A stretch of DNA of 64,000 nt from Gammaproteobacteria bacterium (GCA_026399315.1 JAPLRF010000033.1:16260-80259), one strand, 5' to 3'. Positions 3,708 through 57,379 are shown, numbered from the stretch's first letter. A program made the numbers and translations. Notes: generated by a model from the letters alone, not told the origin.

Positions 3708-3868
3708 GTATCCGCTCCATTTTTCAGAGTGACATCAATATTATTGCTGTTGCTAGAAGTTATCGGGGGTCTGCTGTCAGGGATCAGTATTCGTATTCTG
3801 ACACCGATCTCTGATCTCAGATCCCCGATCACTTTTCAATCAGTGCAATAGATAAAAATATCCGTTAT
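3708..3868. repeat. Interspersed ~160-bp element, 'family D' copy D1, with imperfect terminal inverted repeats (GTATCCGCTCC ... AAATATCCGTTAT)
   Basis: The left half (GTATCCGCTCCATTTTTCAGAGTGACATCAATATTATTGCTGTTGC...) recurs inverted at 59931-60007. The right half (..GATCAGTATTCGTATTCTGACACCGATC..CCGATCACTTTTCAATCAGTGCAATA) recurs at 40380-40505, 54719-54899 and 59578-59674. Confidence 0.7.
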
Positions 3869-29075: not shown

Positions 29076-29864
29076 CTACCGGGCGCGTTTCTGAACTATT
29101 TGAAATAAACTTCTGAAGTTGTCGCTTGTTGCAGTTGCCACTTCTTCAATGGAAATATTTTTTATCTCAGCGATTTTTTCAGCGACGTAACGAACGTATT
29201 TTGGTTCGTTTTGTTTTCCACGGAAAGGCATGGGCGCTAAATACGGAGAATCCGTTTCAATTAATATTTTATCAAGCGGGACATAACGCGCAACTTCCAC
29301 TAATTCTTTTGCGTTTTTAAAAGTAATAATGCCAGAAAATGAAATATAAAAATTTAAATCCAGCGATGCCTTTGCCATTTCCAAACTTTCAGTGAAGCAA
29401 TGCATCACGCCACCCACCTCATTGGCGTTTTCATCACGCATTATTTTCAAGGTATCTTCACTTGCATTGCGCGTATGGACAATTAAAGGTTTTTTTGTTA
29501 ATTTCGCAGCGCTAATGTGATCGCGGAAACGTTGTCGCATCACTTCTAATTTATCGGAATTATAATGATAATCTAAACCGGTTTCACCGATGGCAACCAC
29601 TTTCGGGTGTTTTGCTAACTCACATAAGGTTTCAACGGATAAATCATCTTCTTCTTTTTCGCTGGGGTGTGAACCGACAGAGCAATAAACGTTTTCGTAT
29701 TTTGAAGCGATTTCAGCGCATTTTTTCGCGGAAATCATATCGACGGCAACGCAGAGCATTGCGTTTACCCCGGCTTGTTTTGTTTCGAGCATGAAGCGGT
29801 CGAAATTGTTGTCATAAGAGGGTAAATCAAGCATGTAGGGGTGGCAGTGTGAATCGATGAACAT
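29076..29864 (-). CDS. ycfH: TatD-family metal-dependent hydrolase (YcfH-like)
   Basis: MFIDSHCH..., GETGLDYHY, HTR.A and DSPYLAP motifs, with the conserved position downstream of holB. The last ~6 codons lie in a GC-rich repeat. Confidence 0.85.
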   Translation of the reverse strand: MFIDSHCHPYMLDLPSYDNNFDRFMLETKQAGVNAMLCVAVDMISAKKCAEIASKYENVYCSVGSHPSEKEEDDLSVETLCELAKHPKVVAIGETGLDYHYNSDKLEVMRQRFRDHISAAKLTKKPLIVHTRNASEDTLKIMRDENANEVGGVMHCFTESLEMAKASLDLNFYISFSGIITFKNAKELVEVARYVPLDKILIETDSPYLAPMPFRGKQNEPKYVRYVAEKIAEIKNISIEEVATATSDNFRSLFQIVQKRAR

Positions 29865-29994
29865 TTTAATTTCTCTTGGTTAGGAATACATACATTTCAA
29901 AATGTATGTTTTTATAAAATTCTGCGCCACCCGCTAACGCGGGGGCTTCCGTGCTAATTCACCAGCTCATTGATGAATATTTCTTCATGCAATA

Positions 29995-31056
29995 TTACGC
30001 ACAAGCTACTGAGCGCGTTTCTGAGCTGAATTTTATAAAAATACTTTCTAGGCATAACTGGGTGTTTAAATTAATCCCTCTGGATAAAAATAATTTTTTT
30101 TCATTAAGATGATCAATACATTCCTGCAATTTTATGGGTAATATTTTTTCTGCAATTTTTTCAAGCAGCGGGAAAATATCGTTATTTAAAATATAAGTTA
30201 TTTCTACTTTATTGTGCATACGAGAAATATCGACGCACAGCAAGGTGAGTATCTCCAATATTAAATTAATATCTTGTTTTAACCAAGCGGCTATTGGCGC
30301 AATGGGATTTGCGCGATGTAAAATAATTTGTTCAAGGTGATTTGCAATTTGGTCGCGCAATTGTAAATAATGGTTGTCGGATAGTATTTTTACTTTTAAA
30401 GGTGCATTGCCCGATAAACGCAACAAAATTGCACTGTCTTTTTCAGTGGGCATTTCTTTTGTCAGCCAAGTTAAAGCACTTTTTTCATCAGCAGAAAATA
30501 ATATTTTTTGGCAACGGCTATAAATTGTTGCTGGCAATGGGTGTTCTTGGTTGTCGATTAAAAAAATAATAACCTTACCGCTGGGTTCTTCAAGTGTTTT
30601 TAACAAGGCATTCGCCGCTTGCACTGGCATAGAATCAGCAGGTGAAATAATAATAACTTGATATCCACCTGCGTGGGATGTTCTGGAGATTTTTTCAGTG
30701 AGTTCGCGGATTTGATCTATTTTAATTATTTTGGATTTTTCTTCGGGACTAATCATTAAAAAATCGGGGTGGGTGTTTGCGGAGAATTGTTTGCAGGATT
30801 TACAGGTGTTGCAGGACTGCGCGGTCGCTATCGCTTCCGCTTCCATACGCTTCGTAGAAAGTTCGTTCAGAGAATACTGCGCGGTTGCTGTCCCTGCATT
30901 TTGAGAACACAGTAAAAAACCCGCAAATTCATGCGCAAAATCAGTTTTTCCTAAACCTGATACACCCGATAATAAATAAGCATGCGCTAAACGATTTTGC
31001 AAAAATGCACTATGCAATAAATTAAATTGTTTTTGCTGCCAAGGATAAATCATCAT
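29995..31056 (-). CDS. holB: DNA polymerase III delta' subunit
   Basis: YPWQ start, HAYLL.G..GLGK, the Cys cluster C..SCNTCKSC, ANALLKTLEEP and SRCQ motifs. It overlaps tmk by 4 nt. It carries an in-frame repeat insertion (30811-30897). Confidence 0.8.
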   Translation of the reverse strand: MMIYPWQQKQFNLLHSAFLQNRLAHAYLLSGVSGLGKTDFAHEFAGFLLCSQNAGTATAQYSLNELSTKRMEAEAIATAQSCNTCKSCKQFSANTHPDFLMISPEEKSKIIKIDQIRELTEKISRTSHAGGYQVIIISPADSMPVQAANALLKTLEEPSGKVIIFLIDNQEHPLPATIYSRCQKILFSADEKSALTWLTKEMPTEKDSAILLRLSGNAPLKVKILSDNHYLQLRDQIANHLEQIILHRANPIAPIAAWLKQDINLILEILTLLCVDISRMHNKVEITYILNNDIFPLLEKIAEKILPIKLQECIDHLNEKKLFLSRGINLNTQLCLESIFIKFSSETRSVACA

Positions 31057-31670: not shown

Positions 31671-31756
31671 GATAAGGGTTCTCGTTGTTCGTGTCATTCT
31701 GCTAAAAAGGTATTTACTGCGATATCACGCGCACCCTACCGGGCAGCGCTTCCGAG

Positions 31757-32767
31757 CTATTTTATTAGTGTATTGCGATATTCTTGCACTTGCTGTAAAT
31801 GCTGCGCATATGTCGCTGAGAAATTATGGCCGCCTTTTCCTGTTGCGACATAATATAAATAATCTGTTACAGCGGGATGTAGCGCTGCTTGTATTGATGA
31901 TTCACTGGGCACACAAATTGGGGTTGGCGGCAGTCCATCCATTAAGTACGTATTGTAGGGCGTTTTTGATGTTAATTCTTTTTTGGTAATGGGGTTATTA
32001 AAATTTTGATTTGCACCATACTGTACTGTTGGATCAATTTGCAGGCGCATATTTTTCGCCAAACGGTTTACAATAACACTGGAAATTAAGGGTTTTTCTG
32101 CCGCCACAGATGTTTCTTTTTCAATTAATGAAGCGACAATCAATGCTTGATAGGCATTTTGATAGGGTAAATTGGCTGCTCTGTTAATCCAATCCGTTTG
32201 TAATATTGTCTGCATTTTTTGATAGGCTGTTTTCAATACAGAAAGATCCGTATTTCCCCAAGTAAAAAAATAGGTGTTGGGATAAAACAATCCTTCAATA
32301 TGTTGCTCGGGCGCATTTAATTTTTGTAATATTATTTGATTCGACTGATTAATTAAAGTTTGATTTAAATCAGCGTCTTTCAATAATGCAGCGCGGATAT
32401 CAGAAAACGTCCATCCTTCAACGATGGTTAAACGGTGCTTCACTAAACCCGTTCCGGCCTTCATGTGTTTTAACAATTTCCATGCCGTCATCGGATATTT
32501 GATTTGATACTCGCCATAACGCAATTGAAAGCGATTGCTTGTGATCGTCACCAACCACGCAAAAAAATCAGGGTAGCGAATAATATTTCGCGCGTATAAA
32601 TGCGTGGCCAGCATAGTCACATCTTGACCTGGATATACTTTAACAGCTATTTTTTCATTTTTTTTAACCAAGGGGACGCGAAAAAATTGGTAGGTTAAAC
32701 TGGTGAGCACAAGGAAGACAAGAGTAGTGAGTACGAGGATAAAGGCGAGAAGTTTGTGTTTGGTCAT
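31757..32767 (-). CDS. mltG: Endolytic murein transglycosylase MltG (YceG-like)
   Basis: An N-terminal TM anchor plus the YceG domain (ASLIEKET, NTYL..GLPP.PI..P). Conserved position between fabF and tmk. Confidence 0.85.
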   Translation of the reverse strand: MTKHKLLAFILVLTTLVFLVLTSLTYQFFRVPLVKKNEKIAVKVYPGQDVTMLATHLYARNIIRYPDFFAWLVTITSNRFQLRYGEYQIKYPMTAWKLLKHMKAGTGLVKHRLTIVEGWTFSDIRAALLKDADLNQTLINQSNQIILQKLNAPEQHIEGLFYPNTYFFTWGNTDLSVLKTAYQKMQTILQTDWINRAANLPYQNAYQALIVASLIEKETSVAAEKPLISSVIVNRLAKNMRLQIDPTVQYGANQNFNNPITKKELTSKTPYNTYLMDGLPPTPICVPSESSIQAALHPAVTDYLYYVATGKGGHNFSATYAQHLQQVQEYRNTLIK

Positions 32768-32827
32768 GATTACTCGCTTTGATAGTTTGAACTTATGGGA
32801 ATGAAAAACGACTTATCGCTCATTCGC

Positions 32828-32937
32828 GCGAGGGCTACCGCCCCCGCTTCTGTGCTATCCACGCGCTCGGAGCTTTGAGGCTCAACGCTTTGTTATGATT
32901 CCACTCGCTAACGCTCGGGGCTCTGAGGCTCGGCGCT
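32828..32937. repeat. GC-rich short-repeat cluster in the fabF 3' flank (families B and A)
   Basis: GCGAGGGCTACCGCCCCCGCTTCTGTGCT is followed by two tandem units related to CCACTCGCTAACGCTCGGGGCTCTGAGGCTCG. The same motifs occur at 35266-35294, 44351-44386, 46366-46404, 56049-56165 and 57393-57477. Confidence 0.8.
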
Positions 32938-34178
32938 TAACTGTATTTTTTAAATATTAGACTACCATTGGTGCCGCCAAATCCAAAGGAGTTGGATAAC
33001 ACGCAATTAATTTTTGCGGATCGCGCAATGTTGGGAACCAAGTCCATGTCACAGCCTTCACCAGGATTATCTAAATTAATAGTGGGTGGCGCTACTTGAT
33101 CACGAATCGCTAAAATAGAGAAAATCGCTTCGACCGCACCCGCCGCACCCAATAAATGGCCTGTCATCGATTTCGTTGAACTCATCATGCAATGATTTGC
33201 GTGATCACCAAATGCCTTTTTAACAGCCAATATTTCAAGATGATCAGCCGCTGGGGTTGATGTGCCGTGCGCATTCACATAATCAATGTCGCTTGCCGTC
33301 ATTTTTGCATCCTGCAATGCATTTATAATGGCTTGCGATGTGCCGCGCGCGTTGGGTTCAGGGGACGTTGTATGATAGGCATCCGCACTCATTCCAAAAC
33401 CCATTAACTCAGCATAAATATGCGCGCCACGTTTTTTTGCAAATTCTAATTCTTCTAACACCAAAACACCCGCGCCTTCGCCTAGCACAAAACCATCACG
33501 GTCTTTATCCCAAGGGCGACTCGCTTTCGTGGGATCATCGTTACGCGTGGACAATGCTTTAATAACGTTAAATCCACCCACACCCAATTCGGTAGTGACC
33601 ATTTCTGTGCCGCCCGCTAACATTGCATCAGCATCGCCATAGGCAATCATGCGCGCAGCCGCGCCAATGTTATGTGCGCCAGAGGTGCAAGCCGTCACAA
33701 TAGAAATGTTAGGGCCCTGTAAATTGTGTTTCATAGACACAAGACCAGGCGCCATATTAACGATGGAACCAATGATAAAAAACGGAGAAATTTTACGTGC
33801 GCCGCCTTCAATGAAAGCGTCACGATTTTTTTCTATGTGCAGTAGACCGCCAATCCCGGAACCAATTGCACACCCTACGCGAGGCGCAATGTCATCGGTA
33901 ACGATTAAGCCGGAATCCAGCATGGCTTGTCTGGCTGCCTCTGCCGCATATAAAACAAATGTATCTAAGCGACGCGCCTCTTTAATATCAACCGCCAATA
34001 AAGGATCGAAGTTTTTCACTTCGGCTGCAAAACGCGTGGGGAACGAAGAAGCGTCAAAACGCGTAATGGGCCCAACAGCGCTTTTTCCAGCAAGCAGCGC
34101 ATCCCATGTATCAGGGGCAGTGTTACCCAAGGGACTTAGCATCCCTATTCCAGTTACGACAACGCGTCTTTTAGTCAC
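32937..34178 (-). CDS. fabF: 3-oxoacyl-ACP synthase II
   Basis: 413 aa. The active-site region [13 protein letters not shown] plus the NAHGTSTP and [10 protein letters not shown] motifs. Confidence 0.9.
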
Positions 34179-35294: not shown

Positions 35295-36230
35295 TTAAAG
35301 ATTAATAATATCTTTTGAAATTCGTTTATTTAGTCCCGCCAATACTTTTCCTGGCCCGCATTCATAAAAGGTGTTGACGCCATTGTTCATCATATACTGA
35401 ATGGTTTCGACCCAACGCACTGGTGAAATTAATTGTCGGACCAAAGCGTCGCGAATATCAGTGGAAGTGTGGTGAATTTTTACATCGGCATTTTGAATAA
35501 CAGAAATTGCAGGGGATTTAATTTCAATGGATTTTAATTTTTCTGCCATGGCATCCGCAGCACTTTGCATGAGGGCACAGTGTGATGGCACACTGACAGG
35601 GATTTTTTTTGCTATTTTCGCGCCTTTTTCGTCTGCTAATTGAATGGCTTTTTCAACGGCAGATGTATTGCCTGCTATTACTATTTGGCCGATGGAATTA
35701 TAATTGGCAGGACTGACTGCGCGGTCGCTATCGCTTCCGCTTCCATTCACTCTAGATAATTCATCGCTTATGTATTGACTGGCTTGCTTGCAAATTTCTT
35801 CAACGACGTGATCTTCTAATCCCACAATCGCGGCCATTGCGCCCGCCCCCGGCAAAACAGCTTCTTGCATAAACTTTCCACGCGCAGAAACCAATGAAAT
35901 AGCATCATTAAAATGAATGGCCTCAGCACAAACCAGCGCAGCATACTCACCCAAACTGTGACCCGCTAAAAATGTTGGTTTTTCATCGTGTGATAATTTC
36001 CAACATTCGTATACGGCGATATCTGCCGCTAACAATGCCGGCTGTGTAAATTCAGTTTGATCTAATTTTTCTGCGGGGCCATTTTGCGTTAATTCCCATA
36101 AATCGTAATGCAAAATATCGGATGCTTGATTAAATAATTTTTTTACGCAAGCATGTTGCACAGCTAATTCAGATAACATGCCGATGGATTGCGAACCCTG
36201 ACCAGGAAAGATAAGTGCGAAGTGCGTCAT
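35295..36230 (-). CDS. fabD: Malonyl-CoA-ACP transacylase
   Basis: FPGQGSQ, GHSLGEY and VSVPSHC motifs. It contains a ~16-codon GC-rich insertion (about 35717-35764). Confidence 0.9.
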   Translation of the reverse strand: MTHFALIFPGQGSQSIGMLSELAVQHACVKKLFNQASDILHYDLWELTQNGPAEKLDQTEFTQPALLAADIAVYECWKLSHDEKPTFLAGHSLGEYAALVCAEAIHFNDAISLVSARGKFMQEAVLPGAGAMAAIVGLEDHVVEEICKQASQYISDELSRVNGSGSDSDRAVSPANYNSIGQIVIAGNTSAVEKAIQLADEKGAKIAKKIPVSVPSHCALMQSAADAMAEKLKSIEIKSPAISVIQNADVKIHHTSTDIRDALVRQLISPVRWVETIQYMMNNGVNTFYECGPGKVLAGLNKRISKDIINL

Positions 36231-38221: not shown

Positions 38222-38289
38222 TTGACAATCCTGAGAAAAAACACATCGTGATAATCAAACGCAGCCTTTCAGCCACGTTTCTGTGCTAT

Positions 38290-40379: not shown

Positions 40380-40505
40380 GTATCCGCTCCAAATTTTAAG
40401 GCGACGAAAATAGTATTGCACTAACTGAAAAGTGATCGGGGATCAGTGTCAGAATGCGAACACCGATGCCCGATGCCCGATGCCTGATCTCCGACCATCG
40501 ATCCT
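40380..40505. repeat. Family D element, partial copy D2
   Basis: GTATCCGCTCCAAATTTTAAGGCGACGAAAATAGTATTGCACTAACTGAAAAGTGATCGGGGATCAGTGTCAGAATGCGAACACCGATGCCCGATG. It is near-identical to 59578-59674. Its upstream flank (40338-40379) matches the inverted flank at 60008-60050. Confidence 0.7.
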
Positions 40506-40814: not shown

Positions 40815-43187
40815 ATGATAAAAAGAATGCTCATTAACGCAACGCACGGCGACGAACTGCGCGTAGCGATCACAGCGGATGCTGTGCTGGTTGATTTGGA
40901 CATCGAACACCCTGGTCAAGAACAAAAAAAATCGAACATTTACAAAGGCAGAATCACCAGCATTGAACCGAGTCTCGGCGCTGTGTTTGTGGATTATGGC
41001 AGCGAACGCCATGGTTTCTTGCCACTCAAAGAAATCTCCCCTGAATATTTTTTAACATCGGCTGACGGCCAAGCAGCGGAAACGATCGACATCAAGCGCG
41101 TTCTCAAAGAAGGCCAAGAAATTGTCGTTCAAATCGATAAAGAAGAACGTGGAAACAAGGGCGCTGCGCTCACTTCATTCATCGCTTTGGCGGGCTGTTA
41201 TTTGGTTTTGATGCCGAACAATCCCGACTCTGGCGGTATTTCGCGCCGTATCGAGGGCGATGACCGCGATCAACTCCGTGAAATCATCGAACAACTTCCC
41301 ATTCCTGAAGGCATGGGCATTATCATTCGAACCGCGGGCGTGAGTCGTTCTAAAGACGAATTGGAATGGGACTTGAAAGTATTGCTGCGTTACTGGGAAG
41401 CGATCAAACAAGCCGCTGTAGCAAGACCCGGCCCTTATTTGATTCACCAAGAAAGCGATGTGATTATCCGCGCGGTGCGTGACCATTTGCGCCAAGACAT
41501 CAGCGAAATCGTCGTTGATAACGAAGATGCTTACAATCGCGCAAAAGCATACATTCAACAAGTGCGCCCTGATTTTATCGAACATTTGAAATTATACACC
41601 GACTCAATGCCCATCTTCAGTCGCTTCTTAATTGAAAAACAAATTGAAGCAGCATACCAGCGCGAAGTGCGATTGCCTTCTGGTGGCGCAATTGTGATTG
41701 ACCATTCAGAAGCCTTGGTTGCGATCGACATCAATTCCGCACGTGCAACAAAAGGATCCAGCATCGAAGAAACCGCACTGCAAACCAATTTAGAAGCAGC
41801 TGACGAAATCGCAAAGCAACTCCGCATTCGCGATATCGGCGGATTGGTTGTGATCGACTTTATCGACATGACACCTGCTCGCAATCAGCGTGAAGTGGAA
41901 AATCGTTTGCGCAATGCTTTAAAAATGGATCGCGCACGCATTCAAATTGGCCGCATTTCTCGTTTTGGATTGCTGGAAATGTCGCGTCAACGCTTACGCG
42001 CATCATTAAGCGTTTCATCAGAAACTGTTTGCCCCCGCTGCGAAGGTCGCAGCACAATTCGCAGCGTAGAGTCTGTTGCCATTGCGCTCGTTCACTTGAT
42101 TCAAGAAAATGCATCGCGCAGCAATAATGCGCAAATTCAAGTTCAATTACCATTGGATATTGCTACTTTTGTGATGAATGAAAAACGTGACGCGATTAAA
42201 GAAATTGAAACACAATCCTCTGTGAAGGTTATCATCATCCCCAATGAACATTTAAAATCGCCGAATTTCCACATCAAAACCATTCGCGATGACAGCAATA
42301 AAAACATGCCGAGTTATAAGCAAGTGCGCGTGCCAAAACCAGAACTGATTGTCAGCAAATCAGCGACAACTGTAGCAGCGCCTGAACCTGCTATTCAACA
42401 ATACTTATCCAATGACATTCAGCCGCCCGCACCAAAACCACAAAGCAACGGGTTAATTAAACGCTTATGGGATGTGATGTTTGGTAGCGAAACACCCACA
42501 GTAAAAAAACCAGAAAGAAAATTTTCGAACGGAAAACGTCAACCTTCACAACGACAAGAACCTATTTTGCCGCGCGTGAGTGGCGACAGTCTTCGCGATG
42601 ATCGCGGAGGCCGTGCGCGAAACAACAACAAACCACGCAGACCACAACCACAACGTGATGGCGCAGCAGCACAACCCAGACGTGACGATCGTACCGGTGA
42701 CCGCAACAATCGCACGCGCGATAACCGTGATCGGAACGTAGATCATCGATTGCCTGCAAAACCCGCAGTCACTTCCCCTGTCAGTCCTGTTGAGAAGAGC
42801 AGCGCATCAGAAGTGCCTGTAACAGAAAATCTCAAGCCAATATTGCCGCCAGTAATTGAAAATCACAGCGCAGCACCAGAAAAGGTGATGGAAAAAGCGC
42901 TTGTGAATGAAAAACCGATTGCAAAAGCGCCTGAAAAACCAGCGGTAAAAGCAGTGGAAAAAGCCGTTGAGAAAGTGATTGTGGCTGAGAAACCTGTTGA
43001 AAAGGCAGTGATCGCTGAATCAGCACAGCCCGCTGCGATGATCCCTGCAGCAGCACAACCAGCAGTAGCAGTAGCACCACAACAACCCACAGCACCATCT
43101 GTTCCAGCTGCAGCTTATCAAAAGGATTACAAAGGATTGTCGTCAGGTAAAAAACCGTTACAACAAGTGACAACGAAAAAAGAATAA
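40815..43187 (+). CDS. rne: Ribonuclease E
   Basis: MKRMLINAT start, the S1 domain, the catalytic-domain motifs DINSARAT and GGLVVIDFIDM, and the CPRCEGRS Zn-link. The C-terminal half is low-complexity: Arg-rich, then EKAV/EKPV and Ala/Pro-rich. A long non-coding leader lies upstream. Confidence 0.9.
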   Translation: MIKRMLINATHGDELRVAITADAVLVDLDIEHPGQEQKKSNIYKGRITSIEPSLGAVFVDYGSERHGFLPLKEISPEYFLTSADGQAAETIDIKRVLKEGQEIVVQIDKEERGNKGAALTSFIALAGCYLVLMPNNPDSGGISRRIEGDDRDQLREIIEQLPIPEGMGIIIRTAGVSRSKDELEWDLKVLLRYWEAIKQAAVARPGPYLIHQESDVIIRAVRDHLRQDISEIVVDNEDAYNRAKAYIQQVRPDFIEHLKLYTDSMPIFSRFLIEKQIEAAYQREVRLPSGGAIVIDHSEALVAIDINSARATKGSSIEETALQTNLEAADEIAKQLRIRDIGGLVVIDFIDMTPARNQREVENRLRNALKMDRARIQIGRISRFGLLEMSRQRLRASLSVSSETVCPRCEGRSTIRSVESVAIALVHLIQENASRSNNAQIQVQLPLDIATFVMNEKRDAIKEIETQSSVKVIIIPNEHLKSPNFHIKTIRDDSNKNMPSYKQVRVPKPELIVSKSATTVAAPEPAIQQYLSNDIQPPAPKPQSNGLIKRLWDVMFGSETPTVKKPERKFSNGKRQPSQRQEPILPRVSGDSLRDDRGGRARNNNKPRRPQPQRDGAAAQPRRDDRTGDRNNRTRDNRDRNVDHRLPAKPAVTSPVSPVEKSSASEVPVTENLKPILPPVIENHSAAPEKVMEKALVNEKPIAKAPEKPAVKAVEKAVEKVIVAEKPVEKAVIAESAQPAAMIPAAAQPAVAVAPQQPTAPSVPAAAYQKDYKGLSSGKKPLQQVTTKKE

Positions 43188-43280
43188 GTAACCAGGATGT
43201 GAGGGCTATCGCCCTCACGCAAAACTCAGAGGCGAGCGTCGCGCAAAACTCAGAAGCGAGCGGCGGCAGCCCTCGCGCGA

Positions 43281-44288
43281 TTAAACAGCGCCATATCTCG
43301 GTTCTTTATTATTATGCAATGGCGTCTGTTTATCATCCGCCGAACCAGGACAACATTTTTTCACCCCAGCAAACAACGCTGCACCACCCGAATAAACCAC
43401 CGATCCTGTCGCAGATGCTCCTGAAGCAAAACCACGCCCTACCGCAGGCACTGCTTGAAATAAGAATTTATCCGCAATAACCGCCAACCAAATTTGCCCC
43501 GCAAAAACCAAAAATGCATTTTGGTAAAACGCATCTAAAGCGGATGCAAATTTATTGTCTTTTTGGAAATCTGGATAGCCTGCAAAAACACCATTTGTTA
43601 TTTGCAGTCCGTATGCCACAAGGAAAAACATCACCGCTTCTCTGCGTGTGAGTGATTTAAACTTTAAATAAGGCACATGCACCAATAAATTATTTTTTTC
43701 ATGCGCAGGTAATTTATTAAAAGGGATTTTAGATCCTAATAAACGCGCATTATATTTAACGCAATCGTTACTCCCTTGTGGTTGATCAATTTTTAATTGC
43801 GAAGCAGAACGTATAATATATTCCAACCCCGTCAAAAATAAAGACACCATGATATTAAAAACAGGAAATAAGGCCTTTTCATGAGCGCCTAAAAAACCAA
43901 ACATGTTTAGCATGAATTTAGAAATACTTTGAAGACCAATCGCACTGAAAAAAGCCATCGCGGTTTCAGGGAATGAGCCGTTCATAAAAATATGGCCTAG
44001 GGCGCGATCCGCTGTAGCAGCGCCTACGCCAACAACCAAGCTGCGCGCTGATTTAAGCACAATCCAATTAGGACTAATTTCCGTCTGGAGCGCATTTGAT
44101 ATCGACCCCTTACCATTATCGGTTGCCATCGATTCAGCGGAAGCATCGGATCCACCTGCTTCAACGCGATTGACTTCATCTTGTTGCGCTATTTTCCATT
44201 GCTTGTCTTTTTCAGCTTGTTCAGCTGCTTCGACCTTAGTGATAATATCTTCGCGTACTGTGTATCCTGGATTAAAATACTCTCTCAT
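43281..44288 (-). CDS. Orphan integral membrane protein (335 aa)
   Basis: ORF with an acidic N-terminal ~70 aa followed by multiple hydrophobic helices. No recognisable family. Confidence 0.5.
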   Translation of the reverse strand: MREYFNPGYTVREDIITKVEAAEQAEKDKQWKIAQQDEVNRVEAGGSDASAESMATDNGKGSISNALQTEISPNWIVLKSARSLVVGVGAATADRALGHIFMNGSFPETAMAFFSAIGLQSISKFMLNMFGFLGAHEKALFPVFNIMVSLFLTGLEYIIRSASQLKIDQPQGSNDCVKYNARLLGSKIPFNKLPAHEKNNLLVHVPYLKFKSLTRREAVMFFLVAYGLQITNGVFAGYPDFQKDNKFASALDAFYQNAFLVFAGQIWLAVIADKFLFQAVPAVGRGFASGASATGSVVYSGGAALFAGVKKCCPGSADDKQTPLHNNKEPRYGAV

Positions 44289-46326: not shown

Positions 46327-46404
46327 GGTGGGCTAATGCACCAGGGTTGTGCATTGCTAGAATCGCGTGAGGGCTACCGCCCCCACTTCTGATAGTTCAT
46401 CGCT
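46327..46404. repeat. Family B palindromic repeat, left copy, flanking the 1,281-aa gene
   Basis: GGTGGGCTAATGCACCAGGGTTGTGCATTGCTAGAATCGCGTGAGGGCTACCGCCCCCACTTCTGATAGTTCATC. Its reverse complement, with ~6 mismatches over 75 nt, is at 50477-50551. Confidence 0.85.
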
Positions 46405-50311: not shown

Positions 50312-50476
50312 ATTAACGCTTAATTTTTTCGAATTTACGTAAATCCCCCCGGTTTTAAAGCGAACTATTTTATTGCACATTTAGACAAAATTGCGCTTTA
50401 TAACCGCCCCCTTTTTCAAAGGGGGGTGATCGCATTGTTCAGATAGTCCCATCGCCAATGAAGATGCGAATTCAGA

Positions 50477-50551
50477 GATGAACTATCAGAAGTGGGGGCG
50501 GGAGCCCTCACGCGATTCTAGCAATGCAAAGCCCCGGTGCATTACCCCACC
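50477..50551. repeat. Family B palindromic repeat, right (inverted) copy
   Basis: Reverse complement of 46327-46404 (see that entry). A related fragment lies at 50588-50630, and a partial copy at ~53976-54023. Confidence 0.85.
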
Positions 50552-50704
50552 CCTTTCCTGCTTTTTTAAAAATATTTTGTGTGTTTGCGCGAGGGCTACC
50601 GCCGCTCGCTTCCGTTGGTTCGTCGCTAGATTTTATCGCCACCGCTTTTGGATGTGTTAAATGAAATTCATCGGCAGATTGAGTTGGGTATCATTTGAAT
50701 TATT

Positions 50705-50778
50705 TCGGGACAGCAGGATTTGAACCTGCGACCCCTTGCACCCCATGCAAGTACGCTACCAGGCTGCGCTATGCCCCG
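50705..50778 (-). tRNA. tRNA-Pro (anticodon GGG)
   Basis: The minus strand reads CGGGGCATAGCGCAGCCTGGTAGCGTACTTGCATGGGGTGCAAGGGGTCGCAGGTTCAAATCCTGCTGTCCCGA. It folds as a cloverleaf with acceptor CGGGGCA/TGTCCCG, anticodon stem CTTGC/GCAAG with loop AT-GGG-GT, and T arm GCAGG-TTCAAAT-CCTGC. CCA is not encoded. Confidence 0.9.
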
Positions 50779-51518: not shown

Positions 51519-53915
51519 TTATGCCCTCAAAGTTGCGTTCAACTCCCGTTCAAGCGCGATGACAACACCATGAATTATCGCGTTTATTTCCTCATCTACT
51601 AGAGTGCGTGATGGATCTTGAAACGTCAAGCCCAAAGCGATACTTTTTTTGCCCAATTCTATATTTTTACCTTGATAGACATCGAAAATCATCACATCCT
51701 GAAGCTGAGAACCCGCCTGCTGCTTAACTAAAGTGCTTATTGCAGCGGCCGAAGTTGCCTCATCAACCACAATCGCCAAATCACGGCGAACCGATGGAAA
51801 ACGTGAAAAAGTTTCATAATGCGGCACTGAGATTCGCTTAATCGCTTCCAAATCGAGCTCGCAAACGATGACCGGTTGGCGAATATCGAAGTGATTGAGG
51901 ATCTGCGGATGCACTTCGCCCAGATAGCCGATGAGCTTGCCGTCGCGCATGAGCGAACACGAACGCCCCGGATGCAATGCAGTATTAACAAGGCTTTCAT
52001 TAGCATGCATGGAAACGGAAGCGACAGCGACCGTGTGATCGAAAAGAAGCGCTTGAATATCCGCTTTTAAATCATAAAAATCCACCGCGCGCTTTTTCTC
52101 ACCCCACTGTTCTGACACTACGCTACCGGTAATAACCATCGCCAACTTCGGCGTTTGCGCATCACCAGAAAAACACAAACCCGTTTCAAATAAACGCACA
52201 CGTTCACATTGATGGCGCAAATTCAGTTGAACTGCTTGTAATAAACCTGGCAATAAACTATCGCGCATCACAGACATATCTTGTGATAAAGGATTTTTCA
52301 AGGTAATTGGTTTTGCCGCCGGTGAAAACAAAGAAAACAATTCCGGAGAAATAAAACTATACGTAATGGCTTCATGATAATCGCGATCGATTAAAAAGTG
52401 GCGGATTTTTTTGTCACTTAATTTTCCTTCTGCGTGCGATTTCATGCTTAAATTCGCCACCATTTCCAAGGAAGGAATCGTATCGTATCCGGTCATTCGC
52501 GCTAATTCTTCGATTAAATCAACCGGCAAACTCACGTCAAAACGAAAACTGGGCGGAATCACTTCCCAGCCATTTTCCAGCGATTCTACAATGAAACCCA
52601 GTGATTCTAAAATTCGCACGACATGATTATCTGCGATAACAATCCCCACTGTTCGCTGAATTTGATCGCGCGCTAAAAATATTGCTTCACGCCTTGGTAA
52701 ATTATTTTCTGAAACCACTTCAATTATTTCTTCTACCGTACCACCCGCAATCTCTAAAATTAATTGTGTCGCGCGCTCAATTGCCTCACGCGGCAAACTA
52801 AAATCGACACCGCGCTCGAACCGATGTGAACCATCGCTCGTAATACTGTGTCTTCTTTTACTTAAGCAAACTGTTTTCGGCAAGAAAAAACACGCCTCTA
52901 GAAATATATCTTTTGTATTTGTTGTTACGCTCGAATCAACGCCGCCCATCGCACCCGCTAATGCCAGCGGCTTTTCTTCATCTGCAATAATTAAATCGTT
53001 TTCTGTTAATGTAATGAATTGCTCGTCTAATAATTTTATTTTTTCATTTGATTTGGCGCGACGTACAATAATGTTATTTTTAATGGTTGATAAATCGAAA
53101 GCATGCATCGGCTGACCCAATTCCAACATGACATAATTTGTAATATCGACAACAGGATTAATTAAGCGCGTGTTGGCGCGTTGCAAGGCATGTTGCATAT
53201 AAGACGGTGTTTGCAGTGTATTATTCACATGACGAATAACGCGACCGACGTAACGTGGACAGTCTTCTGGGGCTTGTATCGAGATTGACAATGAAGATTG
53301 GGAGCTTGTGATTGGTGTTATTTTTACTGATTCCTGATGTTTTATCGCTGATCCCTGTATCGCTGCTGCCAAATCACGTGCAACACCGCGAATACTCAAT
53401 GCATCGCCGCGATTCGGCGTGATATCCACATCAATAATGCAATCATTTGATTTGAAATAATCATTAAAATCATCGCCGATTTTTGCATCAGCGGGCAATT
53501 CTATAATGCCATCAATCAATGATTTCCCCATTTCCAATTGCAATTCTTTTGCGGAGCACAACATGCCTTGCGATAATTCACCGCGCAACTTAGCTTCTTT
53601 AATTTTAAAATCACCCGGTAAAACTGCACCAACGGTTGCAACAGCCACCTTAATGCCTGCGCGCGCATTGGGTGCACCACAAACGATTTTCAATAATTCT
53701 TTTTCGCCAACATTCACCTCACAGCAAGATAATTTGTCGGCATTGGGATGCTGAGCACGCGTGACGATTTCACCAATGACAACACCGGAAAATTTTCCAG
53801 CAACAGGCGTAATGGCATCGACCGTCAAGCCAAGCATCGCCATTTGTTCGGTTAATTGTTCTGTTGTTAAGGCAGGGTTCACCCACTGACGTAACCATTG
53901 TTCGCTGAATTTCAT
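51519..53915 (-). CDS. pheT: Phenylalanine-tRNA ligase beta subunit
   Basis: [14 protein letters not shown] start (ATG 53913-53915), with tRNA-binding, B3/4, B5 and FDX-ACB regions in order. ~798 aa. Confidence 0.9.
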
Positions 53916-54139
53916 CGGTGAATTCCTCATTTATTTAAGCGCCCATCATACCCCGATATTTTACAAAAACAAAACCGTTCGTACTGTGAAAATGCGAATT
54001 TAACGATGAACTATCAGAAGTGGGAGCGGTAGGTATAAAATTAAAGTCATCTTTTCCTTTCGGAAATTTATATCGTTTAAATTGTCAAGAGCCATAAAAT
54101 ACGTTATATCTGTACAGATGCTTTACAAGACACATAGGA

Positions 54140-54703
54140 ATGGATGCCATGAATAAAACCATCACGTTCAGCTTAATGGGATTAAGCTTAATGATGAGCA
54201 GTGTTTCAAACGCCCAAAACTGCGCCTGTCTTCACCGTGGCGGCTGGCAAGGCAACAATACTTATTTTCGTTGCGAACAAAATTCGTGTCTTTTAAACAG
54301 AATTCCCAATGGCAGCACCGGCGCTGTTTGGACGGTCGACAACACCGTCAATTTCCTCAAGCAAGGCGTTGATTACGTTTCCCAACCCGATGGTTCAATC
54401 GCTTGCCCTAAAGCTTACAGACACGCTAATCCAGGTATTGCCACACAATGTCAAAATAATAAAGCGGAAGTGCATCGTAACGGTCTACCGCAGTGCGCAT
54501 TCCCCGAAGACTGGAAACCCAGTGAGAATAACACTGGCGAATATTCTTGTGATATCGACAAAACAACCACAGTCCGTTGCGCGTATGATGTCATATCAGA
54601 AGGGGTGAATCTCAGCAGCCCAACCTCGCTGGAATTGGATTGTGCGACACTGGAAGCAAGCGCAAGCCCTTTGGAATGCGCAAAATGCTTTAATCCACTT
54701 TAA
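54140..54703 (+). CDS. Secreted cysteine-rich protein (187 aa, 12 Cys)
   Basis: Signal peptide MNKTITFSLMGLSLMMSSVSNA|QN. The mature part has 12 Cys. No recognisable family. It lies on the opposite strand between pheT and pheS. Confidence 0.6.
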   Translation: MDAMNKTITFSLMGLSLMMSSVSNAQNCACLHRGGWQGNNTYFRCEQNSCLLNRIPNGSTGAVWTVDNTVNFLKQGVDYVSQPDGSIACPKAYRHANPGIATQCQNNKAEVHRNGLPQCAFPEDWKPSENNTGEYSCDIDKTTTVRCAYDVISEGVNLSSPTSLELDCATLEASASPLECAKCFNPL

Positions 54704-54718
54704 GACCACGCCAGGCTC

Positions 54719-54899
54719 GTATCTACTCCAAACTCAGAGGGTAACTGAAATAGTTGCTGTTAGGGGTATCAGGGATCAGCTGTCTGGGATCGGTGTTCGC
54801 ATTCTGACACCGACCCCCGATCTCAGATCCCGGATCCCGGATCACTTTTCAGTTGGTGTATTGCTATTTCCGTCACCCTCTAATTTAGAGCGGATACAT
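54719..54899. repeat. Family D element, full-length copy D3 (~180 bp)
   Basis: Termini are GTATCTACTCCAAA ... TTTAGAGCGGATAC (inverted). The interior matches both halves of copy D1. The right end abuts the pheS stop codon. Confidence 0.75.
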
Positions 54900-55966
54900 T
54901 AAAACTGCTCAAGAAAGCGTAAATCATTTTCAAACATAACGCGCAAATCATTAATACCATAATGCAGCATGGCCAAACGTTCTAAACCAATACCAAAGGC
55001 AAAACCCGTATATTTTTTTGAGTCAATCCCAACATTTTCTAAAACATTAGGATGAACCATGCCACAACCCAGCACTTCAAGCCAGCGGATGTGCGCACCA
55101 CAAGCTTGTTGCACTACGGCAGATTCATTACCCGTTCGCGCGCAGGCTTCCGCCCCCGCTTCCGTTCTATTTGATTTCCACTCAATATCCACTTCCGCAG
55201 ACGGTTCTGTAAACGGAAAATAACCAGGGCGAAAACGCAAAGGAATTTCTTTTTCAAAAAAGGCGTTTAGGAAATTCTGCAACAAACTTTTTAAATGCGC
55301 AAAATTACAATGCTCATCCACTACCAATCCTTCTAATTGATGAAACATGGGCGTGTGTGTTGCGTCATAATCTCGGCGATATACCCTACCCGGCGTGATT
55401 ATTCTAATCGGTGGCTTTTGATTTTTCATGACGCGAATCTGCACGGGCGATGTATGCGTTCGCAATAATTTTCCATCCGGGAAATAAAATGTGTCTTGTG
55501 ATTCCTTTGCAGGATGATGATCAACAAAATTCAATGCGGAAAAATTATGATAATCGTCTTCAATTTCTGGGCCTTCTTCTACAGAAAAACCCATTTGCGC
55601 GAATAATTCAATAACACGTTCACGCACGCGCGTGACTGGATGCAAACATCCTGTCGATTGTTGCCCACGACCCGGCAAAGTAACATCAATTTTTTCCGAT
55701 GATAATTTTTCGTTTAATTCAGCAGTTTTAAATTGATTGTCTTGCGCATTTAATAAATCTTGAATTTGGGTTTTAGCATCATTAATTAACTGCCCTACTT
55801 TCGGACGTTCATCAGCGCTCAGCTGACCAAGCTGCTTCATTAATTCAGTGAGGTCGCTTTTTTTACCTAAATATTTAATACGGAGGTCTTGAATATCGGC
55901 TACGTTTTTAGCGGAGGCGATGAGGGATTTTGCTTCGTTGATGATGATGTTTAATTTATTCTGCAT
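54899..55966 (-). CDS. pheS: Phenylalanine-tRNA ligase alpha subunit
   Basis: Collinear with E. coli PheS ([57 protein letters not shown]). The start is set at the second ATG (55964-55966), which has GGAG 6 nt upstream. It carries an in-frame GC-rich insertion. Confidence 0.9.
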
Positions 55967-55978
55967 CACAGACTCCAT

Positions 55979-56005
55979 AAAAAAACCCAGCGAGTAGCTG
56001 GGTTT
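55979..56005 (-). terminator. Intrinsic terminator hairpin abutting the pheS start (rplT terminator and/or pheS attenuator)
   Basis: The minus strand reads AAACCCAGC-TACTC-GCTGGGTTTTTTT, and the T tract runs straight into ATGGAGTCTGTGATG of pheS. Confidence 0.65.
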
Positions 56006-56048
56006 GAATTAAATACTCAGGCGAATAGGAGTGTGTGCATTGGTTATT

Positions 56049-56165
56049 TTCCACTCGCTAATGCTCGGGGCGCTGAGGCTCGGGGCTCTGAGCGCTGAGG
56101 TTAGTTTCCACTCGCTGACGCTCGGGGCTCTGAGGGCTCGGGGCGCTGAGGCACGAGCGGTGAGC
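56049..56165. repeat. Tandem array of GC-rich family A repeats in the rplT 3' flank
   Basis: Two ~55-nt units: CCACTCGCTAATGCTCGGGGCGCTGAGGCTCGGGGCTCTGAGCGCTGAGG and CCACTCGCTGACGCTCGGGGCTCTGAGGGCTCGGGGCGCTGAGG. Confidence 0.85.
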
Positions 56166-56779: not shown

Positions 56780-56845
56780 AGTATTCTCGCTTCATTCACT
56801 CATTCAACTAAATACAATCACAGATCCCAGATAACAGACCCCCGA

Positions 56846-57379
56846 TCACTTCTTACCCATCGCCACTAACATCGTAATTTGACGACCTTCCATTTTCGCT
56901 TCCTGCTCAACTACCGCTCCTACAGGCAAATCTGCTTTCACGCGGTTAATAAATTCAACACCCAAATCTTGGTGCTGTACTTCGCGACCACGAAATCGCA
57001 AACTGACTTTAACGCGATCACCGCGCTCTAAAAACTCGGCGATTTTGCGCATCTTAATGCGATAATCACCGATATCTGTTACTGGTCTGAACTTTATTTC
57101 CTTGACCTGAATTTGTTTTTGATGCTTCTTTTGCTGTGTTCGACGCTTACTTTGATCAAACACATATTTTCCGTAATCCATGATCCGACACACTGGCGGC
57201 TCATCATTCGGTGAAATCTCAACAAGATCAAGCATGACGCGTTTGGCCTGCATCAAAGCATCTTCAATGCTCACAATACCGACTTGCTCACCATCTTGAT
57301 CAATCAAACGCACTCGCGGCACACGGATTAAATCATTAACACGTGTATTTTTACTTGCTCTGATGTTGGTTTCCTCCAA
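56846..57379 (-). CDS. infC: Translation initiation factor IF-3
   Basis: VRLIDQDGEQVGIVSIEDALMQAK...DLVEISPNDEPPVCRIMDYGKY. There is no ATG or GTG near the N-terminus. The candidate starts are TTG (57377-57379) or ATC (57362-57364). Confidence 0.9.
   Translation of the reverse strand: MEETNIRASKNTRVNDLIRVPRVRLIDQDGEQVGIVSIEDALMQAKRVMLDLVEISPNDEPPVCRIMDYGKYVFDQSKRRTQQKKHQKQIQVKEIKFRPVTDIGDYRIKMRKIAEFLERGDRVKVSLRFRGREVQHQDLGVEFINRVKADLPVGAVVEQEAKMEGRQITMLVAMGKK

Follow-up and report, generated by a model that had tools for sequence, protein, structure and literature searches.

The gene pheS lies on the minus strand of a 64-kb stretch of DNA (the window) from an uncultured freshwater Coxiellaceae-like bacterium (Table 1). 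An alternative in-frame ATG at 55978, upstream of the pheS start, would extend the product to 359 aa. When compared with P. aeruginosa PheS (4P71), the product matched at E=9e-128; the ORF is intact, the residues invariant in the family are all there, and the gene order thrS-infC-rpmI-rplT-pheS is the canonical operon context. Given both domains, the invariant residues and the rplT operon, the product is the alpha subunit of a class II phenylalanyl-tRNA synthetase.

The surroundings of the gene are rich in repeats. The rplT-pheS interval (55983-56165) contains tandem units of a repeat designated family A (~56040-56165, GC up to 0.68) and, right before the pheS start, a strong hairpin (56005-55983, minus strand) that resembles a terminator, T-run included, and could be the terminator of rplT or an attenuator of pheS. 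Directly downstream of pheS is a copy of another dispersed family, rich in GATC and CCGATC (54767-54858), which recurs at 3761-3850, 40434-40502, 56811-56862 and 59632-59676. The genes pheS and pheT are adjacent in two relatives (L204, L005) and ~970 nt apart here (53931-54898), the gap being taken up by repeats and by an oppositely oriented, Cys-rich ORF of 187 aa (54140-54703), whose product has a hydrophobic stretch at its N terminus and matches no Pfam family. A 59%-identical homologue of this ORF is found behind pheS in the relative L203, and a thymidine-phosphorylase-like gene takes that place in L002. Elsewhere in the window, a repeat of ~260-350 nt occurs twice at 92-97% identity (11967-12311 and 59674-59929); inverted ends (GTATCCGCTCC...) are present near its second copy (59566-60019), and it is possibly a larger MITE.

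A reading of the window made without database searches (the sequence-only reading) had described 55085-55183 as an insertion of 33 aa into pheS. Translation of the minus strand bore out the 33 residues encoded by these 99 nt, and GC content reaches 0.62 across the insert, compared with 0.40 for the window. PheS relatives were searched for among 5.8 billion proteins, and 120 homologues were aligned. After the window's own 355-aa protein, the top matches were from MAGs annotated as Coxiellaceae or Gammaproteobacteria, and the closest relatives, each of 331 aa, share 76-82% identity by BLASTP, or 81-88% in the alignment. As judged from the alignment, the entire surplus of 24 residues (72 nt) falls in this one loop, which comprises 9 residues (EW plus 7) in the closest relatives, where it reads EWNTGTTTKW, AWGTSSPVRW or EWNTGDTIKW up to the conserved Trp, vs. 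33 residues in the window protein. The insertion is therefore real, but smaller than had been proposed. The six residues MGKNGK that the sequence-only reading gave for E. coli PheS are indeed present at the loop in 3PCO, and P. aeruginosa PheS (4P71) has a Cys-rich knuckle of 17 residues. Among the 120 homologues, loop length has modes of 5, 9 and 17 residues, the last corresponding to a CxxC...CxxC knuckle; most loops are 5 to 19 residues long, and the 33 residues of the window protein are the longest. Repeat-free relatives with a homologous insertion of the same size were looked for, and no relative in the PheS alignment carries one. A scan of metagenome contigs with PheS yielded only relatives of <=60% identity, reflecting one conserved motif, with neither a close relative nor an empty site among them; an empty-site allele from the same species was likewise not encountered.

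The 17-residue knuckle occurs in about one third of the 120 homologues (P0064-P0120) and has been lost in the Coxiellaceae-like clade, which has 5-9 residues instead. The same loop has also been enlarged independently in two related lineages, to 28 residues in L202 (P0057) and to 27 in L005 (P0010). Within the P0057 insert is an almost perfect palindrome that begins with GTAG (GTAGAGACGCGATTCATCGCGTCTAC). The P0010 insert (CCGCGCGCGG) has TCAGTA direct repeats at its flanks, and matched neither the repeats of its own 7.9-kb locus nor those of the window.

To place the loop in the enzyme, we used an AlphaFold2 model based on the 120-sequence alignment (mean pLDDT 82.7). The core of PheS was predicted with confidence and its fold matches solved PheRS alpha chains, while pLDDT fell below 50 at residues 266-275 and 279-290, stretches that are bracketed by strands 253-264 and 293-304. 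According to this model, the insert would sit at the end of a beta-hairpin that belongs to the class II catalytic sheet and shortly precedes motif 3, the one position at which the length of homologues varies. The sequence-only reading, which had put it in the catalytic core near motif 3, was thus right about the domain and the neighbouring motif, with the qualification that the site is predicted to be the tip of a hairpin of naturally variable length.

Part of the enlarged loop belongs to a family of dispersed repeats. A profile HMM trained on the window's ten further copies, with the pheS copy excluded, matched 55135-55172 at E=1.2e-6 (25 bits), and a separate, earlier HMM, also built without the pheS copy, gave E=3.2e-7. 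These results support the earlier view of a GC-rich, repeat-derived segment lying in frame within an intact pheS. The match to some copies extends to 55174, and when contigs from other loci (metagenome samples X1 and X2) were placed on the pheS insert, their matches were confined to 55134/5-55172/4. The 34-mer originally singled out does belong to the family and occurs once, at 55139-55172 and not, 2 nt off, at 55137-55170. Its other named members proved to be true copies at 19934-19967 and 32824-32857, the third (29916-29972) being a more distant variant (E=3e-4). The copy nearest to that of pheS is 32823-32858 (25/28 identical in the core). The pheS hairpin has a predicted energy of -15.2 kcal/mol. 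A scan of genome contigs with the 18-nt core GGCTNCCGCCCCCRCTTC, a short and GC-rich pattern, produced nothing beyond isolated chance matches in high-GC genomes.

The extent of the unit was evident from the source metagenome run (X1), in which 24 contigs, of ~6x depth like the window, match the copy at 32823-32858. Aligned on 32805-32875, these contigs lose similarity at either end no more than a few bases from 32823 and 32858, which sets the unit at 36 nt, or 12 codons. The window holds 11 copies, that of pheS included (Table 1), vs. none in ~58 kb from five relatives. Nine of the ten copies outside pheS are sense-oriented and lie 0-224 nt behind a gene; four of them overlap a stop codon or sit <=8 nt from one, and a fifth, at tatD, has the stop within the unit. 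The one plus-strand gene with a plus-strand copy behind it indicates that the orientation of the unit follows the gene. Once all 11 copies are brought into one orientation, their alignment shows a common 8-bp stem with a tetraloop (GGTA, GGAA or GAAA). In this alignment 93% of the stem cells are paired and five of the eight pairs show double compensatory changes, a result matched by 0/500 shuffles. Frequent G.U pairs, which would be A.C on the opposite strand, assign the hairpin to the sense strand. Predicted energies of the copies range from -8 to -17.5 kcal/mol. The terminal tetranucleotide is ATAG in five copies, TTAG in one and another sequence in five (n=11), so that TAG is present in 6/11. 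At gathering thresholds, Rfam recognized only two tRNAs in the window, and the hairpins have no Rfam family.

Table 1. Coordinates of pheS, the parts of its enlarged loop and the copies of the 36-nt unit in the window
Feature	Position	Strand	Description
pheS CDS	54899..55966	minus	355 aa from MQNKL; Pfam PF02912 and PF01409 (precomputed)
Enlarged loop segment	55085..55183	minus	99 nt, 33 codons (EW...HIR); ends at conserved strand WLEVLGCG
Repeat unit in pheS	55135..55170	minus	36 nt = 12 codons; sense strand ATAGAACGGAAGCGGGGGCGGAAGCCTGCGCGCGAA; by HMM
Hairpin core of pheS unit	55140..55159	minus	8-position stem, 7 pairs and one G.G mismatch; GGAA tetraloop
Rest of enlarged loop	55088..55134	minus	remaining 32-36 extra nt and some ancestral loop codons
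TTCCACTC	55176..55183	minus	native Glu-Trp-Lys codons of pheS
Unit copy	19933..19968	minus	107 nt past stop of 2833-aa ORF
Unit copy	29064..29099	minus	tatD stop (TAG) in its loop; last 7 residues of TatD unit-encoded
Unit copy	29994..30029	minus	holB read through to TAA at unit end; last ~11 residues unit-encoded
Unit copy	31723..31759	minus	leading TAG is stop codon of ORF 31757..32767
Unit copy	32823..32858	minus	81 nt past stop of ORF 32937..34178; then family-A units
Unit copy	38254..38289	minus	directly after TAG stop of short L32-like (rpmF-like) ORF, named by eye
Unit copy	43246..43282	plus	61 nt past stop of plus-strand ORF 40815..43187
Unit copy	46362..46397	minus	8 nt past stop of 1281-aa ORF; inside ~107-nt element
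Unit copy	50480..50515	plus	sole copy not sense-oriented behind a gene; part of 107-nt element
Unit copy	50584..50619	minus	weaker (E=9e-5); downstream of tRNA gene 50705-50778

Some copies are part of larger arrangements. The ~107-nt element around 46362-46397 recurs in inverted form at 50450-50556, and a large palindromic composite at 28751-29007 has arms of 124 nt that are 85% complementary, lie 9 nt apart and contain unit-like cores. The composites at 28751-29007 and 46322-46428/50450-50556 belong to the same superfamily, in which they are doublets resembling REPINs or MITEs. One X1 contig joins 55162 to 56106, that is, the core of a hairpin unit straight onto a family-A unit; hairpin and family A repeats thus adjoin at other loci too, as they do at 32823-32936.

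Of the 72 extra nt, only ~36-40 are attributable to the repeat family, and to this extent the proposed repeat origin of the whole segment stood. The rest of the enlarged loop (55088-55134) is rich in short palindromes (GTAG, CAACAAGCTTGTGG, GTGCGCAC) and had no match in the window or in the X1/X2 metagenome contigs at >=80%. A duplication of flanking pheS was considered as its source and rejected, the best local score being equalled by 84/500 shuffles. Since 72 is 2 x 36 and the stretch is palindrome-rich, it may possibly be a second, decayed unit. Neither target-site duplication nor terminal inverted repeats were found at the pheS junctions. Three mutually incompatible placements fit for the 7 ancestral residues among the 31 that separate the two Trp. 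Removal of the 36-nt unit leaves GAG TGG AAA TCA ACG GGT (E W K S T G) opposite the E W N T G of relatives; MAFFT sets GGT AAT GAA TCT GCC GTA (GNESAV) against GGT ACA TCG TCT CCT GTT (GTSSPV) of the homologue P0002; and in the third, the C-terminal ...HIR is ancestral, the version of this region in sample X8, TSSPHIRW, resembling TSSPVRW of P0002. Owing to these competing placements, one event of 72 nt and two events of about 36 nt fit the data alike.

The octamer TTCCACTC at the edge of the loop had been taken for the start of a family A unit, an assignment that did not hold. It is the reverse complement of GAG TGG AA, and repeat-free relatives read GAA TGG AA at the same place. Chance alone would produce this 8-mer about once in the window, and the AATATCC that follows departs from family A. 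We also considered the octamer as microhomology for a recombinational insertion, and rejected this as no donor locus supports it.

Related sequence is present in other genes of the window. An identical GC-rich stretch of 32 nt, ATGGAAGCGGAAGCGATAGCGACCGCGCAGTC, lies in frame in both holB (30815-30851) and fabD (35715-35751), essential genes unrelated to each other, which read it in different frames as KRMEAEAIATAQS and RVNGSGSDSDRAV, respectively. Aligned by hand, the stretch shares 66% identity and its hairpin layout with the pheS unit, and seems to represent a subfamily of that hairpin repeat. Compared with solved structures, FabD has 16 extra residues relative to the best-matching FabD (3TQE), and HolB about 24 relative to E. 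coli delta prime (1A5T). The earlier description of pheS as a third essential gene with an in-frame, repeat-derived segment is therefore supported, with the repeat of holB and fabD being of a related subfamily. In pheT, a related stretch at 51978-52039 was matched at E=2.7e-5, and PheT is 9 residues longer there than in a relative; this gene is probably affected by the same phenomenon.

The pheS insertion persists across samples and strains. Its sequence is identical in Logan contigs from X1 (1581 nt) and X2 (452 nt), two samples of one study, and from X5 (228 nt), which belongs to a second study. A lake-water run of a further study (X8) provided a 345-nt contig over 55046-55390 that differs at 16 positions (~95% identical) and has no gap, showing that the insertion is common to strains about 5% apart. 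With three studies and four samples in agreement, the insertion is not an assembly artefact. The codon comparison with X8 covers 12 listed differences, seven in the insert and five in the flanks. Six of the seven in the insert are nonsynonymous (A>P, G>S, C>S, A>T, V>A, E>G), whereas all five in the flanks are synonymous third-position changes (0/5 nonsynonymous; Fisher one-sided p=0.008). Synonymous-only flanks point to strong purifying selection there, and hence to a pheS that is in use. The insert itself is kept in frame and otherwise free to vary, and we regard this relaxed constraint as established. All 16 stem nucleotides of the hairpin are unchanged in X8, and its loop differs as GGAA>GGGA (-14.1 kcal/mol). 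The lone synonymous change in the insert replaces CGGAAGCG with the family consensus, CAGAAGCG.

Cumulatively, our findings make it likely that a REP-like unit was copied into a permissive loop of pheS, where it is translated and tolerated as a passenger. A short, mobile or recombining repeat of 36 nt, present in dozens of copies in the genome and usually at home on the sense strand, overlapping or closely following stop codons, would have been copied into the pheS coding sequence; the direction of the event, insertion into pheS, is what we infer. Mobility of the repeat is suggested by its dispersal, and movement may have involved a RAYT-type single-strand transposase or recombination between copies. 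The unit amounts to 12 codons and its one internal TAG would be out of frame in pheS, so that the ORF stays open. It would be translated as ~12-13 residues, with 11-12 more residues without a traced source beside it, and the tip of the beta-hairpin would thereby be lengthened from 9 to 33 residues. Because the tip is a naturally length-variable surface loop, the enzyme would tolerate the insert; translation and tolerance are also suggested by the essential nature of PheS together with the intact ORF. No particular amino-acid sequence would be required of the insert, which would drift as a passenger while the rest of PheS is under strong purifying selection.

The conservation seen at the hairpin invites a different interpretation, namely that it is kept in pheS for a role at the level of nucleic acid, possibly in ribosome pausing, as an RNase or processing site, as a binding site for a protein that modulates pheS/pheT, or as a site at the DNA level, with the encoded peptide being irrelevant. 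In keeping with this, the X8 hairpin has an intact stem and a loop change that preserves it, while the adjacent 26 nt took five substitutions; the X8 peptide is altered at 6 positions; and the pheS hairpin equals the extragenic copies in stability. We nevertheless consider such a role unlikely. The counts are tiny (2 changes in 36 nt vs. 5 in 26 nt), the stem already contains a G.G mismatch, neither a U-tract (T-run) nor a terminator-like tail follows the hairpin, the RNA fold of 55060-55210 is not more stable than that of shuffled sequences (z=-1.15), and relatives manage without the hairpin.

Growth of the loop by lineage-specific indels, slippage or duplication of neighbouring sequence, the likeness to the repeat being mere convergence of GC-rich sequence, would be in line with the independent expansions in P0010 and P0057 and with the half of the insert that has no relative among the repeats. 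It is hard to reconcile, however, with an HMM match at E=1e-6 that covers the full length of the unit and has matching unit ends, with the X8 variant being even nearer the family consensus, and with the absence of significant similarity to flanking pheS in the shuffling comparison, and we hold it to be highly improbable. It is scarcely credible that the assembly is chimeric here, that this pheS is a pseudogene in decay, or that the segment is an intervening sequence, whether intein or intron, excised before the protein becomes active. Nothing speaks positively for any of these, although a second pheS beyond the 64-kb window on which our view is based is formally possible; against them stand the (near-)identical contigs in four samples from three studies, the canonical operon, the intact ORF with its invariant residues kept, and flanks that differ from X8 only synonymously. 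For an intein or self-splicing intron, 72 nt would also be far too short, and no Rfam family was matched.

Considering known repeats, a close parallel to the copying of a unit into pheS is provided by the Rickettsia palindromic elements (RPEs; Ogata et al. 2000), which are found in frame in housekeeping or essential genes and add an extra peptide at a tolerated site (PMC10969869, PMC3733652). In common with RPEs, the insertions described here are in frame, at sites compatible with the fold, and in several unrelated genes of one genome (pheS; holB, fabD). In contrast to RPEs, which are about 100-150 bp long, occur in Alphaproteobacteria and encode a conserved peptide, the unit is 36 nt, resides in a Coxiellaceae-like gammaproteobacterium and encodes a peptide that is not conserved; nor is there any sequence relationship. 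The pheS unit hence works like an RPE but is not one, as size, host and peptide conservation all differ. A more far-reaching reading, which we find rather doubtful, is that this lineage independently evolved an RPE-like system, in which 36-nt units repeatedly enter PheS, HolB, FabD and perhaps PheT within one 64-kb window. The hairpin and not the peptide would then be conserved across strains, being retained for a role in RNA or DNA or as raw material for loops.

REPs (repetitive extragenic palindromes) form GTAG/CGTC-tagged superfamilies, their terminal TAG is often the stop codon of the upstream gene, and a minority of them lie wholly inside ORFs (Di Nocera et al. 2013, PMC3733652). The present family resembles REPs in being a GC-rich, imperfect palindrome of 20-40 nt with many dispersed copies, mostly behind genes, some of which donate TAG stops. 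It differs from them in the tag, having ATAG or TTAG in 6/11 copies in place of GTAG or CGTC, and no Y1_Tnp (RAYT) domain or transposase was seen in the window among ten ORFs scanned, mostly small or unassigned, RAYT being the Y1 HUH transposase whose gene accompanies REPs and is flanked by them. In Coxiella burnetii, QMITE2 and a small REP form reside mainly in 3' UTRs, with overlaps of a few bp with C-terminal codons (Wachter et al. 2018, PMC5896051). QMITE2 is 150-190 bp long with terminal inverted repeats, direct repeats of 7-11 nt and a GTAG REP, and its truncated copies are REP-like (PMC5896051). The host of QMITE2 is of a related bacterial family, and placement in 3' UTRs and overlap with C-terminal codons are shared with our unit; unlike the latter, QMITE2 is not reported inside essential genes. 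Small non-autonomous repeats of the ERIC, BOX and QMITE1 type create in-frame fusions with, or extensions of, host ORFs (reviewed in PMC10969869), but these are >100 bp, often have ORFs or promoters of their own and mostly affect non-essential or hypothetical genes. Finally, MITEs measure 50-500 bp, in contrast to a unit of only 36 nt whose pheS junctions, as described above, lack the hallmarks of such elements.

The phenomenon itself is already known from Rickettsia and from REP elements, and the pheS case is a new example of it. It extends the occurrence of selfish DNA in protein-coding genes from Rickettsia and scattered REP cases to a gammaproteobacterium related to Coxiellaceae, and to the catalytic domain of an aminoacyl-tRNA synthetase. 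The contrast between strains, with an insert that drifts and flanks that change only synonymously, is unusually clean and depicts a permissive loop absorbing foreign sequence; beside this contrast in selection, the main interest is that a single lineage has inserts of this kind clustered in several of its essential genes. They make proteins seem more divergent than they are, and annotation, phylogenetic markers and structure prediction can all be misled by them; the PheS loop is a natural candidate site for engineered insertions.
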